A DNA stretch of 64,000 nucleotides from Alphaproteobacteria bacterium. GTDB taxonomy: Bacteria > Pseudomonadota > Alphaproteobacteria > GCA-2731375. The notes beneath the pieces are model-generated. The model was not told the origin of the DNA and searched no databases. It saw only the letters and a list, made by a program, of their open reading frames with translations. Position numbers and translations under genes: made by a program. Location: contig CBDDPY010000002.1 in assembly GCA_965232515.1 (NCBI GenBank), positions 6,208,001-6,272,000 of the forward strand, read 5' to 3'. Position 1 is the first letter of the stretch; the number at the start of each line of letters is the position of its first letter. Positions 6,529 to 27,748 of the stretch are shown piece after piece.

Positions 6529-7122
6529 TCAGTTGCCGCTGTAGCTGATCCGTTCCTCAAGCAGTTGCTGCAGATCGGCCTGCTTGATGGCGAGCATCGA
6601 AATCGGGATCTGAACGGTCGGCAGCCCCTGCATCTGGCCGCGGAAATGTGCCGCGCCGCGGTTGAAGCCACCGGCGGTGAAGCGTTTCAGGCGTTGCTGA
6701 AGCTCGAGGTCGTTGTCCGTGTTGACGGCGACCAGCAACTGTTTGCGAAACGCGGTCGGCCGCGCGAAGCCCATGCCCATGACCCGGTCCCAGGGGATCA
6801 GGCCGATCGCAGGCCGGCGGCAGCGGATGCCGTCCTCACCGATGGTCAGCACCGGCTTGCGGTCGAAGCCCAGGTAGATCAGCGTCGCCGCGGTGACGAG
6901 ACCGACGAGAAACACGCCGATATCGACGCCCATGCCGTTGCTTTCCGTGATGCTGACGCCGCGACGCATCGCGTCGAGCGCGGCGAGCGAAATCAGCAGG
7001 CAGGGCAGCGCCATGCCGACATACTTGCCCTTCGAGGCCATGATCTCGATGGGCTGGACCCGGTCTCCGGGATCTGCCGGCATAGCCGGTGCGTCATCCG
7101 CCGCGCGGTCGCCGCTGCTCAT
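6529..7122 (-). CDS. Hypothetical membrane protein (two TM helices plus a PH-like soluble domain)
   Basis: Start moved to ATG 7122, which gives an ATGA overlap with the upstream MaoC gene. Two hydrophobic segments are followed by PVLTIGEDGI...IPW. Confidence 0.65.
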   Translation of the reverse strand: MSSGDRAADDAPAMPADPGDRVQPIEIMASKGKYVGMALPCLLISLAALDAMRRGVSITESNGMGVDIGVFLVGLVTAATLIYLGFDRKPVLTIGEDGIRCRRPAIGLIPWDRVMGMGFARPTAFRKQLLVAVNTDNDLELQQRLKRFTAGGFNRGAAHFRGQMQGLPTVQIPISMLAIKQADLQQLLEERISYSGN

Positions 7123-7616
7123 CCGTCGGCCGTCGTTGCCGGTCGACGGCGGTAGAAGGCGATGTTGGTGATCGTCATGACGGTCTCGCCGGCCTGGTTC
7201 AGCACCGTGTTGGCGATCTTTATGATGCCCCGGTCCGGCTTGCTTTTGGATTCGATTTTCTCGGCCACGACGGAACGCACCGACAGCACGTCGCCAGGGC
7301 GCACCGGGCGCAGCCACTTCAGGTTTTCGAAACCGGGCGAGGCCAGCACGGCCGTGCGCGGCAGGCCGTCGTCGCAGACCATGCGCATCATCATGCCGCA
7401 GGTATGCCAACCGCTGGCGATCAGGCCGCCGAACATGGTCTGCGGCGCGGCTTCTTTGTCGATGTGAAACGGTTGCGGATCGAACTGCCGGCCGAACTCG
7501 ATGACCTCTTCCTCGGTCACCGCATAGGCGCCGAATTCGCGTGTCTGGCCGATCTCGAAGTCCTCGAAATAGACCGGCTTGCCGGTGGTTGCTTTGGGCG
7601 AAGTGGCGTCGTTCAT
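7119..7616 (-). CDS. MaoC family dehydratase
   Basis: YFEDF, FDPQPFHID, GGLIASGWHT and PVRPGD motifs. Confidence 0.9.
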   Translation of the reverse strand: MNDATSPKATTGKPVYFEDFEIGQTREFGAYAVTEEEVIEFGRQFDPQPFHIDKEAAPQTMFGGLIASGWHTCGMMMRMVCDDGLPRTAVLASPGFENLKWLRPVRPGDVLSVRSVVAEKIESKSKPDRGIIKIANTVLNQAGETVMTITNIAFYRRRPATTADG

Positions 7617-8065
7617 GCCGCCGCCTCCGGCCGCCGCGCGATCATGCCCAGGCCGACGGTCGTCATCACGACCTCGCCGTTCTGGTTTATGAGATCGGTA
7701 CGACTGCGCACGAACCCCATGGGCTTACTTTTCGACGGCCAGATCTCCAGCACTTCCTGCCGGCCGGTCAGCGTATCGCCCGGGCGCACTGGGATCAGCC
7801 AGCGGCAGGATTCGACGCCGGGCGAGCCGAGGGCGGCGACGGACTCGGTCTTGAACCGCTCGACCAGCATACTGATCATCAGGGCGTTGGTATGCCAGCC
7901 GCTGGCCGCCAGACCGCCGAACGAGGTCTGTTTGGCGGCCTCCGGATCGGTGTGAAAGACCTGCGGGTCATACTTTTTGGCGAAGGCGATGATGTCGGCC
8001 TCGTTGACGTGCCGGGCCGCCAGTTCGGCGACGTCGCCGACCTTGATGTCCTCGAAATACTTCAT
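7613..8065 (-). CDS. MaoC family dehydratase (paralog)
   Basis: YFED, YDPQVFH, GGLAASGWHT and PVRPGD motifs; ATGA overlap with the next gene. Confidence 0.9.
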   Translation of the reverse strand: MKYFEDIKVGDVAELAARHVNEADIIAFAKKYDPQVFHTDPEAAKQTSFGGLAASGWHTNALMISMLVERFKTESVAALGSPGVESCRWLIPVRPGDTLTGRQEVLEIWPSKSKPMGFVRSRTDLINQNGEVVMTTVGLGMIARRPEAAA

Positions 8066-8160
8066 GATTGGTGTGCTGCGAACTGTCCCCGGTGCGATAC
8101 GGCGCGTAACATAGCTATTCTATTCGATCATGCCTACAGACAGGGAGGCCGTGCCGGCCG

Positions 8161-8535
8161 ATGCTGAAGTTGACCTTTTGCCTGCGCCGCAAGCCGGGCC
8201 TGAGCCGGGAGGAATTCCAGCGCTATTGGCGCGAGAACCATGGGCCGCTGATGCGCAAAAACATGGCCGCCATGGGGGTACGCAAGTATGTCCAGCAGCG
8301 CACGCTGGACGGCGAGGCGGCGGATTTCATCGCCAACAGCCGCGGCGGGCCGGAGCCCTATGACGGCGTCGCCGAGGTCTGGTGGGACGATCTGGCGGCC
8401 TTTCAGGCGGCGACGGGCTCGGCCGACGGTCGCGCGGCCGGCAAGGAAATGTACAAGGACGAGCTGAACTTCATCGATCTGGCGAACTCGCCCTGCTTCC
8501 TGACCGAAGAGCAGTTCGTCGCCGAGGACAACTGA
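8161..8535 (+). CDS. EthD domain protein
   Basis: LRRKPGLSREEFQRYWRENHGPL...YDGVAEVWW...DELNFID. Confidence 0.85.
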   Translation: MLKLTFCLRRKPGLSREEFQRYWRENHGPLMRKNMAAMGVRKYVQQRTLDGEAADFIANSRGGPEPYDGVAEVWWDDLAAFQAATGSADGRAAGKEMYKDELNFIDLANSPCFLTEEQFVAEDN

Positions 8536-8545
8536 GGCCGCGGGA

Positions 8546-9274
8546 ATGGCGGCGAGCCTCGACTTCAGCGGCCGGACGGTGCTGGTGACCGGCGGCTCCA
8601 GCGGTATCGGCAATGGCATTGCCCGTGCATTCCGCGATGCCGGCGCCAACGTGACCGTTACCGGCACCCGCGCGCAATCGGCGTACCAGGCCGATCTTTC
8701 CGGCATGGCGTACCGTCAGCTCGACGTCGCCGACGATACGGCCGTCGAGGCGCTGGAAGCCGACGTGCCGGCGCTGGACGTCCTGGTGAACAATGCCGGC
8801 ACGGTTGTCTACCGCGGCCGCGAGTTCGAGCCCGAAACCTTTCGCAAGGTGCTGGACGTGAACCTGACCGGCGCGTTGCATCTGGCGAACCGGTTCCACG
8901 ACAAGCTGCGCTACAGCCATGGCTCCGTCGTCAATATCGCGTCGCTGACCAGCTTCTTCGGCTCGCGCGGCAATCCGGCTTATGGCGCCAGTAAAGCCGC
9001 GATCGTGCAGCTTACCAAGTCGCTGGCCGTGGCTTGGGCGCCGGACGGCATCCGGGTCAACGCCATCGCGCCGGGCTGGGTCGAGACCAGCATGACGCAG
9101 CGGATTAAGGAGAACGCGTCCCTCGACGCGGCGATCCTGGCCCGCTCGCCCATGGGCCGCTGGGGCACGCCCGAGGATATCGCCGGTGTCGCCCTGTTCC
9201 TGGCCTCCGAGCTCGCCGGCTTCGTCACCGGCGAGACTATCGTTGCCGACGGCGGCTATTCCGTCAGCGTTTGA
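8546..9274 (+). CDS. SDR family oxidoreductase
   Basis: TGGSSGIG, NNAG, YGASK and VDGG-like motifs. Confidence 0.9.
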   Translation: MAASLDFSGRTVLVTGGSSGIGNGIARAFRDAGANVTVTGTRAQSAYQADLSGMAYRQLDVADDTAVEALEADVPALDVLVNNAGTVVYRGREFEPETFRKVLDVNLTGALHLANRFHDKLRYSHGSVVNIASLTSFFGSRGNPAYGASKAAIVQLTKSLAVAWAPDGIRVNAIAPGWVETSMTQRIKENASLDAAILARSPMGRWGTPEDIAGVALFLASELAGFVTGETIVADGGYSVSV

Positions 9275-23160: not shown

Positions 23161-23475
23161 ATGGTTCCAAACCGCCGCCGCCTCGACGATATCGCCAAAA
23201 TCGCAACCAGCGCCGTCGGAATCCTGCAGGGCGCCGGTCGGGAGGCCGAGGGTCTGATGCGGATCCGCATGGAGCGGCTGCTCGACCGCATGGATCTGGT
23301 GACGCGCGACGAATTCGACGCGGTGAAAGCGATGGCGGTCGCCGCGCGGGAGGAGAATGCCGCCCTGAAGGAGCGGATCGCGGCGTTGGAAGCGGCCGCC
23401 AGGCCGGCGGCGCAACGCGCTGCCCGAGCCAAGTCGACGACCAAAGCGAAGCCGCGCGGCAAATCGACGAAATAG
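23161..23475 (+). CDS. ubiK: Accessory factor UbiK (BMFP) family protein
   Basis: LDDIAK...MDLVTRDEFDAVKAMA...AREEN coiled coil; divergent from lgt. Confidence 0.85.
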   Translation: MVPNRRRLDDIAKIATSAVGILQGAGREAEGLMRIRMERLLDRMDLVTRDEFDAVKAMAVAAREENAALKERIAALEAAARPAAQRAARAKSTTKAKPRGKSTK

Positions 23476-23478
23476 CCG

Positions 23479-24552
23479 TCAGCCGAAATGACCCATATAG
23501 GCCTTGCGCACCAGGTGGGGCAGCAGGAGACGGAGCGGCATGCGCAGCGCATGCGCCCGGACATAGAGCAGCCAGCGGGCGAGGCCGCTGAACCCGTCGT
23601 CGCAGGTCGGGTGATTCGGTCTGAGGCCGCGGTCGAAGAGAAAATCCATCAATGCCGATAGCGGCCGCGATGGCGCGCCGGCGCGCGATGCGTCGATGAC
23701 GTCGTCGGGGATCGGCGTGCCCAACACGTTGCGGGCATAGCGCAGCGCGTAGAAAAGCGGTCGGGACAGCTCGAGTTCGATCGCGCGGGGCACCAAACTG
23801 TCCCAGAACCGGACATCCGTTCCAAAATGAGAAAGCAAGGCGTCGAGGTCGCCGAGATCGCGCAGGCCCTTGTCGAACTCGCCCTCATGGAACAGATGGG
23901 TCGCCGCGTGAATGACCATGTCGGCCGGCGCCAGGGTGAACAGACCGTCGTGCGCTGGAATTGGCTGGGCGGCGGCCAACAGCTTTTGCGGGTCGGGATG
24001 GTAGGGTGCCGTCTCGGGCAATATCGTGTGGTGCACGTCCAGGTAGGTCTTGCGCTTGTAGTGCCGCAGCGGCGGCAGTTCGTGCATCCAGGTCCTGTAA
24101 TAGCGGCTGTCGTAGTCGCTGATCGGTCCGCTGGACCATCCCTTCAATGACAATTGACGTTCGACCGCGTCCAGTGATGTCTTGGGCACCAGGATGTCGA
24201 CGTCGAAGAAGATCCGACCGGCCGCCGGCGGCAATTGGGCCATGGTGTAGGCGGCGCCCTTCAACAGCACGATCGGCAGATCGAGGGGCGCGAGGGCGGC
24301 CTTGATCTGAGCCACTTCCCAGGCGACATCGATGGCCAGCCGGTCGGCGAACAGGCGGTTCGATTCGAGGTGGGCCAATGGCCGGTCCGGGACGCTGTCC
24401 AGCAGGTCCTGGTCCCGCAGGGCCAGGTAGAGCCGTGACAGCATGGCGGACTTGCGCGCCTGCCGGATCAGCCGATCCCACTCGCGACCGGTCAGATCGG
24501 CGGCGTCCAAGGGCTGGCGCAACGCGGCAGTCAGCGCGGGAACGGCGGTCAT
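23479..24552 (-). CDS. Uncharacterised nucleotidyltransferase (NTP_transf_5-like) of the HprK-related cassette
   Basis: LLKGAAY...GRIFFDVDILV (DxD), DVHH and LRDLGDL motifs; ATGA overlap with the kinase gene. Confidence 0.85.
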   Translation of the reverse strand: MTAVPALTAALRQPLDAADLTGREWDRLIRQARKSAMLSRLYLALRDQDLLDSVPDRPLAHLESNRLFADRLAIDVAWEVAQIKAALAPLDLPIVLLKGAAYTMAQLPPAAGRIFFDVDILVPKTSLDAVERQLSLKGWSSGPISDYDSRYYRTWMHELPPLRHYKRKTYLDVHHTILPETAPYHPDPQKLLAAAQPIPAHDGLFTLAPADMVIHAATHLFHEGEFDKGLRDLGDLDALLSHFGTDVRFWDSLVPRAIELELSRPLFYALRYARNVLGTPIPDDVIDASRAGAPSRPLSALMDFLFDRGLRPNHPTCDDGFSGLARWLLYVRAHALRMPLRLLLPHLVRKAYMGHFG

Positions 24553-25484
24553 GCCGACATTCGCGGCCTGGCCGCGGCGGGTGGTGTCAGAGCGTCAAAC
24601 ATGGCGATGGCGTCGTCCAGGTCGCCATAGCTGTATTCCATGCAGCTACAGCGGTCGACAAAGCCGGTCAGCGCGGCAAAGCCGGCCGCACCCAGCACAT
24701 TGGCGTTAAAGGCGCCGCCACTGAGGCGCAGCACCGATTGTCCTTTGCTGATGGGGGTCAACGCCGGCGACGCGCCGGCCGTGAATGTCGGGAAGATCAG
24801 CCAGGCCGGCGTCGCCGGTTCGGCCCAGCGCGCGACGCTATCGGTCGGCGGCTTCACATGCGCGACTGTGCCCTTGTTGGTATCGCGGGTCTCCGGGCCA
24901 ATGACAGCTTGCGGCGCGAACTGGCGCATCACGCCGATGGATTCGTTTTTCAGGCTGACCGGCCGCGGCATCGGCGACAGGCTGGCGCCGTCGTGCGCGA
25001 TCAGGCCCAGTTCGTCGGAGAACAGCCGCCAGCCACGGTTGATCAAGGCCGCGCAGAGCGTGCTCTTGCCCGAACCCGACGCGCCGGGCAGTACGGCGGC
25101 GAAGCCGTTGCGCTCGACCACGGCGGCATGCAAGACGAGGTGCTGATGCAGATGGGCGTGGGTCGCCCAGTTCAGTCCCCATTCCAGGACCGGGAACGCC
25201 TGGTTGCTGGACAATGGCGTGAACGGCACATGGCCGTCGAGATCGAAGATGACCAGCGGTCGTAGCCAGCGCCGCAGCAGCGACGGAGATCTGAGCCGGA
25301 CGTGAAAATCGACAAAGGCGTCGTCCGGTGCGATCGCATAGTCCCGGTAGAGCACGGCAATGCCGTCGACCAGTCCGTTCATTTGCGAGCGCACGCGGAC
25401 CGTGAGCGGCCCGATCCGCCAGGCCAGCCCGTCGCCGCGAAGGCGGCGGCGAATTTCGCTCTCGGTGAGGTCGGCGATCTTCAC
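24549..25484 (-). CDS. HprK-related kinase A
   Basis: LEWGLNW, LHAAVVE, Walker A GASGSGKST, WRLFSDE and PRPVSLKN motifs. Probable GTG start at 25484, just after the PqqD stop. Confidence 0.88.
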   Translation of the reverse strand: MKIADLTESEIRRRLRGDGLAWRIGPLTVRVRSQMNGLVDGIAVLYRDYAIAPDDAFVDFHVRLRSPSLLRRWLRPLVIFDLDGHVPFTPLSSNQAFPVLEWGLNWATHAHLHQHLVLHAAVVERNGFAAVLPGASGSGKSTLCAALINRGWRLFSDELGLIAHDGASLSPMPRPVSLKNESIGVMRQFAPQAVIGPETRDTNKGTVAHVKPPTDSVARWAEPATPAWLIFPTFTAGASPALTPISKGQSVLRLSGGAFNANVLGAAGFAALTGFVDRCSCMEYSYGDLDDAIAMFDALTPPAAARPRMSA

Positions 25485-25485
25485 G

Positions 25486-25782
25486 TCAGCTTCCGTCTGG
25501 CTCGACGAGGCCAAGCTTGTGAAACTCATCGATCAAGACCGCCAGATGGGCGGCCAAGTCAGGATCCGGCGGTAGGTTCAAGTCCGCGGCGACCTGTCGC
25601 GTCAGGCTGTCGACATCGGCGGGCGATTGCTGCAAGGCGCGGATCGCCGCCGCCTCGACGGGACCCAAGAGATGCGTATCGCCGGAGCCGTCGTGATAGG
25701 CGACGGACTCGTCACCCCAGCCACGCAGCTGGACGGAGAATTCGCGGGGCATGCGCCATCGAGAGTGCGACTGCGTGACCAT
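25486..25782 (-). CDS. Stand-alone PqqD/RRE-family protein (HPr-rel-A system type)
   Basis: About 98 aa; W.DE.V.Y...SGDTHLL beta strands followed by helices ending in F.KLGLVE. Directly upstream of the kinase. Confidence 0.82.
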   Translation of the reverse strand: MVTQSHSRWRMPREFSVQLRGWGDESVAYHDGSGDTHLLGPVEAAAIRALQQSPADVDSLTRQVAADLNLPPDPDLAAHLAVLIDEFHKLGLVEPDGS

Positions 25783-25911
25783 GGCCGGGAACGATCGGTT
25801 GTCGTTGGTCCCGCGCAAGCATCACGCAAGCCGGGATGATGGGTCAATCCCGGCCGTTTGTCGCAGGCAAAGGCGAAGAAATGGTAACGCGGCGGCCGGC
25901 CGCGGCATGTA

Positions 25912-26568
25912 TCAGCTGTAGTAGTTGCCGTGGCTGTCAAGCGGGCAATACTGGTTGTTGTAGTAGTCGAACTCGTTTTTGACTTCTTCCATGACGTCGG
26001 CAGTGTTGCTTTGGTAAGCCTGCACGAACTTGCTGATCACCGTCAGCACATCGAGATCGAATTTCACGTCGCAGGCCGCATTCTGCAACGCGGCGACCGC
26101 CTGCCTGCCGAGGTTGGGAAGCTGGCGGCTGCAGTTGCCATCGCAATTGGCCGGGATCACTGGATCGCAATCACCCCGGATCACCTCTTCCAGGGTCGCG
26201 CCAACCTGGCTGTTCTTGGCGTTGAAGGCCTGGATCAGGAAGATTTCCAAGAACTCCTTGTCGGGCCCGTATTGAGGGTGCCAGAGGTGCGTATGCTTCT
26301 TCCAGAAGCCCTTGCTGCAGCCCTCACCCTCACAATCGACGATTTCGGACATGTTCTCCGAGGCCATCGCCGACTCAGAACAACCGCCGGCCCAGGCCGG
26401 TCGGCCATACTGGGTCAAAATAACGGGGGCACCGATCAGGCCACCCTTGAGCAGCCGTCGCCGTGTGGCGCCGCCGGACTCGCTGGCCTGGGGGGTATCG
26501 GCGGCCTGGTCCGCGAGATTAGCGGAGTTATCGGCGCCGTTCTTGCCGTGCGATTTCATCTTGTCCAT
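25912..26568 (-). CDS. Hypothetical Cys-rich protein with twin-arginine/leader-like N-terminus
   Basis: RRRLLKGGLIGAPVILT...PAWA, then a Ser-rich CSESAMASENMS, GCSKGFWK and RQAVAALQNA; 8 Cys; ends in YYS. Confidence 0.8.
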   Translation of the reverse strand: MDKMKSHGKNGADNSANLADQAADTPQASESGGATRRRLLKGGLIGAPVILTQYGRPAWAGGCSESAMASENMSEIVDCEGEGCSKGFWKKHTHLWHPQYGPDKEFLEIFLIQAFNAKNSQVGATLEEVIRGDCDPVIPANCDGNCSRQLPNLGRQAVAALQNAACDVKFDLDVLTVISKFVQAYQSNTADVMEEVKNEFDYYNNQYCPLDSHGNYYS

Positions 26569-26782
26569 GACCCAGATACACCTGTCACTGTCCAGTCCGC
26601 CCTGCTCAACCGGCTGAACGCTAACAATGCGTCGCTTTACCGGCGAAACCTCTCCCTACGGACGGTCACCCGCTCGCTGGCGCCGAACATGACAACTGGA
26701 AGCAATCCCGTCGTATCCCCCGCGACGTGATTTCCCAGTTTGGCACGAACAACGGCCGCCCGAAGGCTCTCACCATCATACA

Positions 26783-26799
26783 AGCAAAATTCGGGCCAG
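26783..26799 (-). promoter_or_regulatory. Sigma54 (-24/-12) promoter driving the cassette
   Basis: Minus strand reads CTGGCCCGAATTTTGCT, i.e. TGGC-N7-TTGC with exact GG-N10-GC spacing. Confidence 0.8.
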
Positions 26800-26824
26800 G
26801 GGAGTCCAAACCAATAGGATGGGT

Positions 26825-26837
26825 TTTCAATGGTTTA
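26825..26837. promoter_or_regulatory. Putative IHF site
   Basis: TTTCAATGGTTTA has one mismatch to WATCAANNNNTTR and lies between the enhancer boxes and the sigma54 site. Confidence 0.5.
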
Positions 26838-26869
26838 ACGTCCCTTGCCCGGCCGGGGTTCTCCGATTC

Positions 26870-26906
26870 TGTAAAGAAACCCGACATAATGTAAGAAATC
26901 CCGACA
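26870..26906. promoter_or_regulatory. Tandem 17-bp TGT-N11-ACA enhancer boxes (bEBP binding sites)
   Basis: TGTAAAGAAACCCGACA (26870-26886) and TGTAAGAAATCCCGACA (26890-26906), 20 bp apart and about 70-110 bp upstream of the -24 element. Confidence 0.75.
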
Positions 26907-27244
26907 CTTAGCATCTGGCATTAACCATAAACGTGATTTCCGACGTACATGGCTGGCTCCGTTCGCGCTTCCTGTCGAGCACTGAACGTTACCTAACATA
27001 GAAACATGTCATAACGGTTTCTTTGTTCCCAGTGACTAGCATGAGAGCAGATGGTGTCCGGGGGTTGTGGGAGCGGCAAAACGCTTGCGCGCGGCTCGGG
27101 CTTCGTGGCACGTTAGCTTTTATGGTGTTCGAGATGGTGCTCAGCCACAAGATGTGGTCGATCAATCGGGTCCCTCGATTTTCCCCCATGGAATACCTGC
27201 GCCCAGACAACGCAATTCTGTTCCGCCGCTGAGGAGCGCTGGCA

Positions 27245-27748
27245 ATGCCGACGACCGAATTCGAAGAACCGACCGATATCGACAACCCGCTGGACGTCGT
27301 TGAGCAGATCGTGTCCGCGAACCAATGGCCGTTCGATCGCCAGGGCGAGGAAGAGCTTTCGGTCTCCATTGCCGGCAGCTGGTGCGACTACCATCTCGGC
27401 TTTTCGTTTCCGCAAGGGCAGGGCGCCATGCAGATCGCCTGTGCCTACGATCTGCGTGTGCCGCAACGGAAGCGCGAGGAGATCTACTCGTTGCTGGCCA
27501 TGGTGAACGAGCGCATGTGGCTCGGTCACTTCGACCTGTGGTCCGAGGAGGGCGTGCCGATGTTCCGGCACACCGTGCTGGTGCGCGGCGGGCCGGCGCT
27601 GACGCCGACGCAGCTCGAGGAAATGATCGAGGTGTCGATCGGCGAATGCGAGCGGTTCTATCCGGCCTTCCAGTTCGTGCTTTGGGGCGGCAAGGCGCCG
27701 GACGAAGCGATCGAGGCGTCGATGCTGGAAACCGTCGGCGAGGCCTGA
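27245..27748 (+). CDS. YbjN domain protein
   Basis: NPLDVVE...WPF...GSWCDY...NE.MWLGHFDLW...CERFYPAFQ...ETVGEA; upstream of proC. Confidence 0.85.
   Translation: MPTTEFEEPTDIDNPLDVVEQIVSANQWPFDRQGEEELSVSIAGSWCDYHLGFSFPQGQGAMQIACAYDLRVPQRKREEIYSLLAMVNERMWLGHFDLWSEEGVPMFRHTVLVRGGPALTPTQLEEMIEVSIGECERFYPAFQFVLWGGKAPDEAIEASMLETVGEA

Follow-up and report, generated by a model that had tools for sequence, protein, structure and literature searches.

A four-gene HPr-rel-A cassette under predicted PrsR/sigma-54 control probably tailors its own leader-bearing first gene product before export

Phosphorylation of a serine in a leader-bearing precursor by an HprK-family kinase is known from the paeninodin and pseudomycoidin pathways and from the recently published linear polyphosphorylated peptide (LPP) systems, and in pseudomycoidin and LPP a nucleotidyltransferase accompanies the kinase. 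Here, we analyze a related arrangement: a four-gene cassette on the minus strand of a 64,000-nucleotide stretch of an Alphaproteobacteria bacterium genome (assembly GCA_965232515.1, contig CBDDPY010000002.1, positions 6,208,001 to 6,272,000; this whole stretch is called the window below). The cassette encodes a 218-amino-acid (aa) protein with a twin-arginine-type leader, a PqqD-family recognition element (RRE) of the kind that serves peptides made on ribosomes and modified after translation (RiPPs), an HprK-related kinase A, and an NTP_transf_5 nucleotidyltransferase. We consider it probable, while leaving real room for other explanations, that this is a sigma-54-driven operon of the PrsK/PrsR regulon that tailors its own first gene product before export.

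The nearest published analogue is LPP (Popov et al. 2026), in which an RRE, an HprK-like kinase, and an NTP transferase act on linear, leader-bearing precursors of 35–200 aa with conserved N-termini; the kinase LppK places several phosphates on Ser3 of the core, three residues past the leader cut, leader cleavage is RRE-assisted, the clusters are embedded in capsular polysaccharide loci, and the authors describe the system as restricted to Bacillota (PMC13381572). The pseudomycoidin report has PsmK phosphorylating the precursor and PsmN being needed for the addition of one or two hexoses to the phosphate, with a D134A/D136A mutant of PsmN inactive (PMC6993621); the precedent invoked in an earlier note on this DNA (written from the sequence alone), that a nucleotidyltransferase homolog is linked to further modification of such a phosphoserine, thus holds. 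The likeness of the present locus to paeninodin and pseudomycoidin lies in the HprK-family kinase paired with a leader-bearing precursor and in the DxD-bearing NTP_transf-like enzyme, required there for the hexose. On the other side stand the lack of a lasso cyclase or B2 peptidase here, the position of the modified serine (C-terminal there, whereas our candidate is leader-proximal), and the hosts, which for those pathways are Bacillota.

The cassette is a member of the HPr-rel-A system cataloged in TIGRFAMs/NCBIfam, with both TIGR04352 and TIGR04353 matched above cut-off; that catalog names the enzymes only, and neither NCBIfam nor Pfam holds a model for a precursor. We take the NTP_transf_5 gene to be part of the same system. 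Searches of one literature library returned no paper for "HprK-related kinase A", "HPr-rel-A", TIGR04352, or TIGR04353, none that combined at least three of PEP-CTERM, HprK, PqqD, exosortase, and HPr kinase, and, for PF14907/NTP_transf_5, only an unrelated phosphonate preprint. The earlier description of the system as uncharacterized stands as far as the HPr-rel-A names are concerned, and has to be tempered by the appearance of LPP as a close analogue in 2026.

Four co-oriented genes had been reported at this locus, and all four open reading frames (ORFs) are indeed found on the minus strand. The precursor, or candidate substrate (25912..26568, 218 aa), has no Pfam or NCBIfam match. It is followed by the PqqD-family RRE, named as the HPr-rel-A system peptide chaperone (25486..25818; TIGR04353, 55.6 bits against a cut-off of 35), the HprK-related kinase A (24549..25529; TIGR04352, 365.2 bits against a cut-off of 200, over model positions 1–280), and the 357-aa NTP_transf_5 nucleotidyltransferase (23479..24552; PF14907, 183.4 bits against a cut-off of 31.2), and hence the hidden Markov model search that the earlier note had proposed places the three enzyme-side families all above their curated cut-offs. 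The genes are as tightly packed as first described: the kinase stop and the nucleotidyltransferase start share 4 nt, and the likely kinase start, a GTG at 25484, lies 1 nt past the PqqD stop. We favor this GTG because the resulting 311 aa is also the length of P0001 and P0002, the closest relatives (90% and 82% identity, respectively). The likely PqqD start is the ATG at 25782, giving a protein of 98 aa.

The kinase family is large, comprising over 4,000 clusters of proteins at 90% identity, with confirmed copies in at least 493 of approximately 185,000 species genomes. From these confirmed loci (at least 493, on one-genome-per-species contigs), we took 80, of 5–15 kb each, picked by kinase similarity alone, and scanned them with a precursor profile that had been built from database relatives independently of the 80 loci. 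The co-occurrence of the 218-aa family with the cassette, which the earlier note had put forward for checking, is borne out: in 76 of the 80 loci the profile matches an ORF on the same strand, about 1 kb upstream of the kinase. In these 76 the ORF ends approximately 300 nt before the kinase, and the profile matches nothing else there. The PqqD gene sits between precursor and kinase, directly upstream of the latter, in 79 of 80 loci, and the nucleotidyltransferase follows the kinase in 78. This near-universal four-gene arrangement, which recurs in 76–78 of 80 loci, is far beyond chance. Three of the remaining loci bear on the precursor count as follows: in L087 the precursor copy is cut short by the end of the contig (C-domain profile E = 6e-15), L105 has a divergent copy with a weak match (leader profile E = 0.0075), and L094 gives no match, the locus being cut at the contig edge. 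We also searched whole genomes in a phyletic sample of 301 members of the phylum, of which 52 are kinase-positive. At a threshold of E ≤ 1e-5, precursor-profile matches occur in 20 of the 301 genomes, 19 of them kinase-positive; in 17 of those 19 the match is on the strand of the kinase, some 1 kb upstream of it, and the sole kinase-negative match covers only the C-domain, within a 420-aa frame.

The precursor has a polar N-terminus, a twin-arginine leader (residues ~35–60) that reads TRRRLLKG-GLIGAPVILT-QYGRPAWA, a Cys63–Cys79 loop holding Ser66, Ser70, and Ser74, and a helical C-domain (residues ~80–218). Its relatives number 578 representative clusters at E ≤ 1e-3 and 69 at E ≤ 1e-10 among 1.84 billion representative proteins; no precomputed Pfam domain falls on any of them, and their database name is "hypothetical protein". 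Typical members are about 200 aa long and show four parts in fixed order, namely a polar N-terminus, an RR-x-F/L leader with P-V-I/L-L/M-T...S-R-P-V-x-A, the stretch C-x-x-S-G-x-x-S-G-N-x-S, and a domain starting G-E-G-C-S-P-G-x-W, the fuller leader consensus of the precursors being S-RR-x-F/L...P-V-I/L-L/M-T-L-A-S-R-P-V-L/M/W-A. Counting conservation over the non-gap rows of 79 cassette-linked precursors, we find the arginine pair kept in 70 of 71, T52 in 64, and S55 in 65 within the leader region; C63 in 74 of 77, S66 in 76 of 77, S70 in 77 of 77, S74 in 62, and C79 in 73 of 78 across the loop; and W89 in 66, W96 in 72, and N163 in 76 precursors within the C-domain. The predicted signal-peptidase site, A-W-A, occupies residues 58–60, three residues ahead of C63, and Ser66 and Ser70 would therefore fall at about positions +6 and +10 of the mature protein. 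These near-invariant serines sit within a possible C63–C79 disulfide loop, and the combination of a conserved leader with serines just past the predicted cleavage site fits leader-guided phosphorylation, as judged from the alignments. Two other assignments for the protein were considered and set aside. Cys63 is not a plausible lipoprotein cysteine, since it is mostly N, S, R, or V that precede it in the family and they form no lipobox. Nor is the precursor an exosortase substrate, because it ends ...CPLDSHGNYYS without the hydrophobic tail of a PEP-CTERM protein, a class recognized by its C-terminal PEP motif, transmembrane helix, and basic tail, and has no NCBIfam match.

An AlphaFold2 model of the precursor, built on a 90-row alignment, has a confidence (pLDDT) of about 97 at residues 80–218 and about 50–60 at residues 1–78, and the model therefore consists of a flexible leader and serine loop followed by a folded helical domain. 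No solved fold could be assigned to that domain: a Foldseek search of the PDB found no match at E ≤ 0.001, the best hit of a wide VIA-align search was a de novo designed helical barrel (Z 5.9, root-mean-square deviation [rmsd] 4.2 over 105 residues), which is below the meaningful level for helical proteins, and the ESM Atlas returned unnamed clusters only, with scores of 0.89 or lower.

On the enzyme side, the residues by which the kinase and nucleotidyltransferase had originally been recognized are strongly conserved. Across 30 aligned kinases, the His (H134), Walker A (G152, G154, K155, S156, and T157), and D172/E173 of the SDE motif are invariant, with S171 kept in at least 90%; in the nucleotidyltransferase, K98, G99, D117, and D119 of the LKG...DxD motif, together with D172, each recur in 76 or more of the 78 sequences. 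With the P-loop and the carboxylates conserved, both enzymes look intact. The kinase family profile matches HPr kinase 1jb1 (E = 3.9e-5), and a weak ABC_tran Pfam match on the kinase (E = 0.0036) reflects the P-loop only. Among lasso RREs, the PqqD family profile matches TfuB1 (6jx3_B) at E = 0.0086, in a nearly full-length match, and TbiB1 at E = 0.27. For the nucleotidyltransferase, the AlphaFold2 model (pLDDT 93.9) has as its nearest solved folds MenT1 (E = 1.9e-4, template modeling [TM] score 0.55–0.58 on target), ANT(2'')-Ia (TM 0.67, rmsd 5.3 over 192 columns), and LnuA, and by this comparison it resembles minimal nucleoside monophosphate transferases. The same fold resemblance is reported for PsmN in the pseudomycoidin paper (PMC6993621).

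The 676-nt intergenic region upstream of the precursor contains a composite control element that provides a regulatory link to PEP-CTERM genes, and this link is new relative to the earlier note. Two tandem copies of PEP-CTERM-box motif 1, read directly at 26870..26905 on the minus strand, form a predicted PrsR enhancer site; each is a 16-nt word, GTCGGGATTTCTTACA (26890-26905), which ends CTTACA and is one mismatch from TTTACA, and GTCGGGTTTCTTTACA (26870-26885), which ends TTTACA. After a spacer of 71 nt, also on the minus strand, comes a sigma-54-type -24/-12 element, TGGCCCGAATTTTGCT (26783..26798), about 215 nt upstream of the precursor ATG and the sole match with at most one mismatch to TGGCAC-N5-TTGCW in the 64-kb window. 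The composite and its spacing are those of the PEP-CTERM/XrtA regulon: Haft 2006 gives a 17-nt motif 1 that ends TTTACA, is repeated in some cases, and precedes a sigma-54 motif by 62.8 +/- 10.6 nt, and states that this composite precedes proteobacterial PEP-CTERM genes and is assigned to PrsK/PrsR (PMC1569441). Gene neighborhoods are often shared as well, and the difference lies in the precursor, which has no PEP-CTERM tail. From the box, the cassette is predicted to belong to the PrsK/PrsR sigma-54 (PEP-CTERM) regulon.

In the genome as a whole, the pattern GTCGG-N5-TTTACA occurs 14 times in 7.39 Mb, versus 0–1 times for five permuted control patterns, and 10 of the 14 sites have a sigma-54 element 52–97 nt further on. 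These ten sites make up nine promoters (two sites have one sigma-54 element in common), of which five precede PEP-CTERM-type genes and one the precursor. The regulators themselves are encoded in the genome next to XrtA (PrsK, TIGR02916, 699.7 bits; PrsR, TIGR02915, 684.9 bits), and PrsK, PrsR, XrtA, and an XrtA-type export protein lie some 330–350 kb from the cassette. Two regulator genes likewise have box-plus-sigma-54 composites in front: a LuxR-type regulator-like ORF and, in its upstream region, an NtrC-family response regulator, which at 356.5 bits falls below the TIGR02915 cut-off; these regulator-linked boxes lie outside the window, at C2:6184734 (-) and C2:2711767 (+). In a first scan of 22 PEP-CTERM upstream regions of the same genome, only four contained sigma-54 elements, and the k-mers that the precursor upstream region had in common with the 22 were GC-rich words only; most PEP-CTERM genes of this genome may do without the box, or their gene starts may have been misjudged.

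The control element recurs with the cassette. Of the 76 precursor-bearing loci, 45 have a sigma-54 element in the 450 nt ahead of the precursor, versus a background of 0.097 per 450 nt; 18 of these 45 have TTTACA 30–120 nt further upstream, versus 0.016 expected per 90 nt, and in 16 of the 18 a TGTC stands in register before it. Furthermore, 46 of the 80 loci have at least one gene of the XrtA/PEP-CTERM exopolysaccharide system within 7 kb. The export gene TIGR03027 is directly upstream in 31 loci, and TIGR03007, TIGR03018, TIGR03016, PrsT, PrsK, PrsR, and TIGR03013 are found in 15–28 loci each. Among close relatives, 4 of 41 genomes have the kinase and all 4 have XrtA, which is present in 9 of the 41.

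Taken together with the published precedents, these observations point to the following sequence of events, whose chemistry, binding, and export steps we infer. PrsR and sigma-54 would switch the operon on, and the 218-aa protein would be made with its twin-arginine-type leader. The PqqD-type RRE would dock on that leader in the cytoplasm and thereby present the flexible Cys63–Cys79 loop, just past the signal-peptidase site, to the kinase. HprK-related kinase A would then phosphorylate, and possibly polyphosphorylate, Ser66 and/or Ser70 and perhaps Ser74, a step suggested by their conservation and by the LPP and paeninodin precedent, and the NTP_transf_5 enzyme may add to the phosphoserine a hexose or a group derived from a nucleotide, by the precedent of PsmN. 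The folded, modified protein would leave the cell by the twin-arginine translocation (Tat) pathway, a general signal peptidase would remove the leader, and the mature phospho-(glyco)protein would act in the envelope or the exopolysaccharide matrix. The interpretation given in the earlier note, in which the RRE binds the N-terminus of the upstream protein and the kinase and nucleotidyltransferase modify it in turn before export, is supported by the comparative evidence and by the published analogues.

Measured against LPP, the likeness is in the same three enzyme types accompanied by a leader-bearing precursor with no lasso cyclase, in a serine a few residues past the leader cut (here a candidate site), and in the polysaccharide-locus context. 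The differences are considerable. LPP clusters have a dedicated signal peptidase I of SipW or archaeal type (LppS), whereas none is found here in the operon or within about 6 kb, and among the conserved neighbors directly adjoining the cassette in the 80 loci there is no peptidase; LPP has an MsbA-like exporter (LppD), whereas no ABC transporter lies within about 6 kb here; the LPP leader motif is YxxPxVLxHQxIxFETxxS, whereas the leader here is of twin-arginine type; and the present system is mainly proteobacterial, has a conserved folded domain in its precursor, and comes with predicted PrsR/sigma-54 control. Because the LPP peptidase, exporter, and YxxP-type leader are all missing, we describe the cassette as one that would work like LPP without being a member of it.

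Several observations weigh against the leader-guided tailoring that we propose, and they concern first the leader itself. The RRE identity of the PqqD protein is assigned from family models, its binding to the leader being an extrapolation from them, and the precursor leader is without the [Y/W]xxP motif that lasso and LPP RREs recognize (PMC13381572). (A complex prediction pairing the PqqD alignment with precursor residues 28–82 scored 0.01 relative to a mark of 0.32, and without controls this is evidence in neither direction.) No Tat-signal model is matched by the precursor in an NCBIfam scan at E ≤ 0.01, and the strict S/T-R-R-x-F/L-x-K/R form occurs in only 24 of the 79 precursors. These two results, along with a short and mildly hydrophobic h-region, are what one might expect if the twin-arginine-like stretch served RRE recognition only and the modified protein stayed in the cytoplasm or was exported in some other way. 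We regard this as very unlikely, given that behind the arginine pair (70 of 71) come F/L, a hydrophobic stretch, and then a small-x-small site, which is the layout of a Tat signal, that the mature part has the high Cys content one would expect after export, and that TatC is encoded in the genome.

A second group of adverse observations concerns the company the cassette keeps. In one locus (L097, positions 6938-8985, from the metagenome-assembled genome [MAG] of a member of the Nitrosomonadaceae), the kinase and nucleotidyltransferase occur without PqqD or precursor upstream, where ruvX, pyrR, and pyrB are found instead; the partners may lie elsewhere in that genome or have been lost. In the whole-genome profile search described above, the precursor was found in only 19 of the 52 kinase-positive genomes. 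That the other 33 fell short of the threshold probably marks a limit of search sensitivity, which we suppose because 76 of 80 precursors were found at the locus level. No PEP-CTERM marker lies within 7 kb in 34 of the 80 loci, the window locus included, and an exosortase was detected in 17 of 52 kinase-positive versus 22 of 249 kinase-negative genomes, a partial link drawn from related genomes that are not independent and include many fragmented MAGs. An obligatory link to exosortase can be rejected on these counts, which show enrichment and not dependence. Finally, LppN, the nucleotidyltransferase of LPP, is reported to have had no detectable activity on the peptide in a heterologous host (PMC13381572).

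This last result would sit comfortably with a different substrate for the enzymes, such as PEP-CTERM proteins, a polysaccharide, or a lipid carrier, with the 218-aa protein being a co-regulated periplasmic accessory. The frequent placement of the cassette inside XrtA/PEP-CTERM exopolysaccharide loci (46 of 80), with a control box in common, speaks for such a substrate, as does the fact that enzymes of the nucleotidyltransferase fold often use small molecules, ANT(2'')-Ia and LnuA being among the nearest folds. However, PqqD-type RREs are modules that dock peptides, and this one is kept in 79 of 80 loci; the precursor is the most constant neighbor, and its leader-bearing form was found only in kinase-positive genomes; and 35 of the 52 kinase-positive genomes have no detectable exosortase, and PEP-CTERM proteins therefore cannot be the general substrate. 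On balance, we judge a different substrate to be unlikely, and modification of the 218-aa protein remains the reading that we prefer.

Several variants and neighbors of the system were encountered among the relatives. In a same-family relative (G003; locus L005, 20-292, minus strand), the only leader-like ORF, of about 70–90 aa and without the C-domain, lies downstream of the nucleotidyltransferase (leader profile E = 0.0055), and the gene upstream of PqqD looks polysaccharide-export-like by eye; this may be a short-precursor variant of the system. A trypsin-like peptidase of about 280 aa (PF13365, 80.6 bits) is encoded approximately 2.65 kb upstream of the kinase in 26 of the 80 loci (L035, L041, and L047 among them), mostly on the same strand, and 23 of these 26 loci also have PEP-CTERM markers; it may be the processing protease of the locus. 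In 19 of the 80 loci (L066 and 18 others), a ThiF/MoeB-family adenylyltransferase-like gene recurs some 4.4 kb downstream of the kinase. Relatives of genus g6 that are without the HPr-rel-A cassette have a PqqD-like ORF of about 95 aa beside an HprK-like protein of about 310–320 aa that scores only some 25–31 bits to TIGR04352 (L012, L014, L015, L019, L021, L024, L027, L029, and L030). The genome under study also contains a second, different system outside the window (C2, ~4149350-4152400; L002, 1-2712 and downstream), in which a 405-aa PqqD-like/HprK-like kinase fusion scores 104.9 bits against TIGR04352, short of its cut-off. A GMC-type oxidoreductase-like ORF follows the fusion; after it come a PEP-CTERM box plus a perfect sigma-54 element, then an ORF of 59 aa with a Tat-like leader (DRRKFLKK...) and a short tail. 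The precursor C-domain (residues ~80–211) likewise has a wider distribution, being found at the end of leaderless proteins of 808, 1228, and 1913 aa (among P0138, P0157, P0172, and others), and it is therefore an independent module.

The short leader-bearing ORFs and the peptidase bring up the possibility of a true RiPP, in which a short excised stretch, for example the Cys63–Cys79 serine loop, is released and the C-domain is a carrier or follower. LPP itself offers a model, as its precursors of 35–200 aa have conserved N-termini and variable C-termini and release a 45-aa core (PMC13381572), and the weakly matched G003 ORF (E = 0.0055), the 59-aa Tat-like peptide of the second system, and the trypsin-like peptidase (26 of 80 loci) could all be accommodated. 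Nevertheless, the C-domain of the 218-aa family is conserved like the leader (W89, W96, F110, A159/A160, and N163), is modeled at a pLDDT of about 97, and also ends long leaderless proteins, and the window has no peptidase in the cassette or within 6 kb. We thus hold excision to be quite improbable, and favor tailoring of the intact, folded protein.

The genes flanking the cassette are housekeeping genes, namely lgt, a BMFP/UbiK-like gene, a YbjN-family gene, proC, Ldh_2, a TetR regulator, and phasins. Within about 6 kb we find neither a lasso cyclase nor a peptidase, and neither a radical SAM enzyme nor an ABC exporter, in keeping with what had been remarked before; a macrolactam synthetase (C) or B2 leader peptidase is likewise absent within this distance and among the conserved neighbors of the 80 loci. 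A simple promoter scan of 23300-27300 gave no sigma-70-like site, and the two terminator-like hairpins in the same interval both lie inside coding sequence and are fewer than the shuffled expectation. Contigs of four RNA-seq libraries from one study, 95–99% identical to the window, span the locus at low, flat depth, and their cover includes intergenic DNA upstream of the predicted promoter as well as the divergent neighbor, such that DNA carry-over is possible.

Chaperones that hold an export substrate by its twin-arginine signal peptide are well established: redox enzyme maturation proteins (REMPs) of the TorD/DmsD/NapD type are cytoplasmic, bind that signal peptide, and hold the substrate until it is mature. 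The holding role is the one we would propose for the PqqD protein, with the differences that REMP folds are unrelated to PqqD and that REMPs escort cofactor insertion, not covalent modification of serine. A bolder joint reading of the evidence, which we think unlikely as a whole, would have the Tat signal peptide double as a RiPP-style leader and PqqD act as a new kind of Tat proofreading chaperone, blocking export until a phosphodiester-linked sugar, or else an activated nucleotide, has been assembled on the serine loop by the kinase and nucleotidyltransferase; the exported protein would then serve, via its phosphoserine, as a covalent anchor or primer of PEP-CTERM-associated exopolysaccharide.

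With this analysis, the large HprK-related kinase A family gains a concrete candidate substrate in a family of Tat-leader proteins to which neither Pfam nor NCBIfam gives a name, along with candidate phospho-sites and a candidate regulator. If the proposed mechanism is true, leader-guided tailoring of the RiPP type would also cover a protein that is folded and exported, the chemistry of LPP would reach beyond Bacillota into Proteobacteria, and that chemistry would be tied to the PEP-CTERM and floc/biofilm program and its protein–polysaccharide links.

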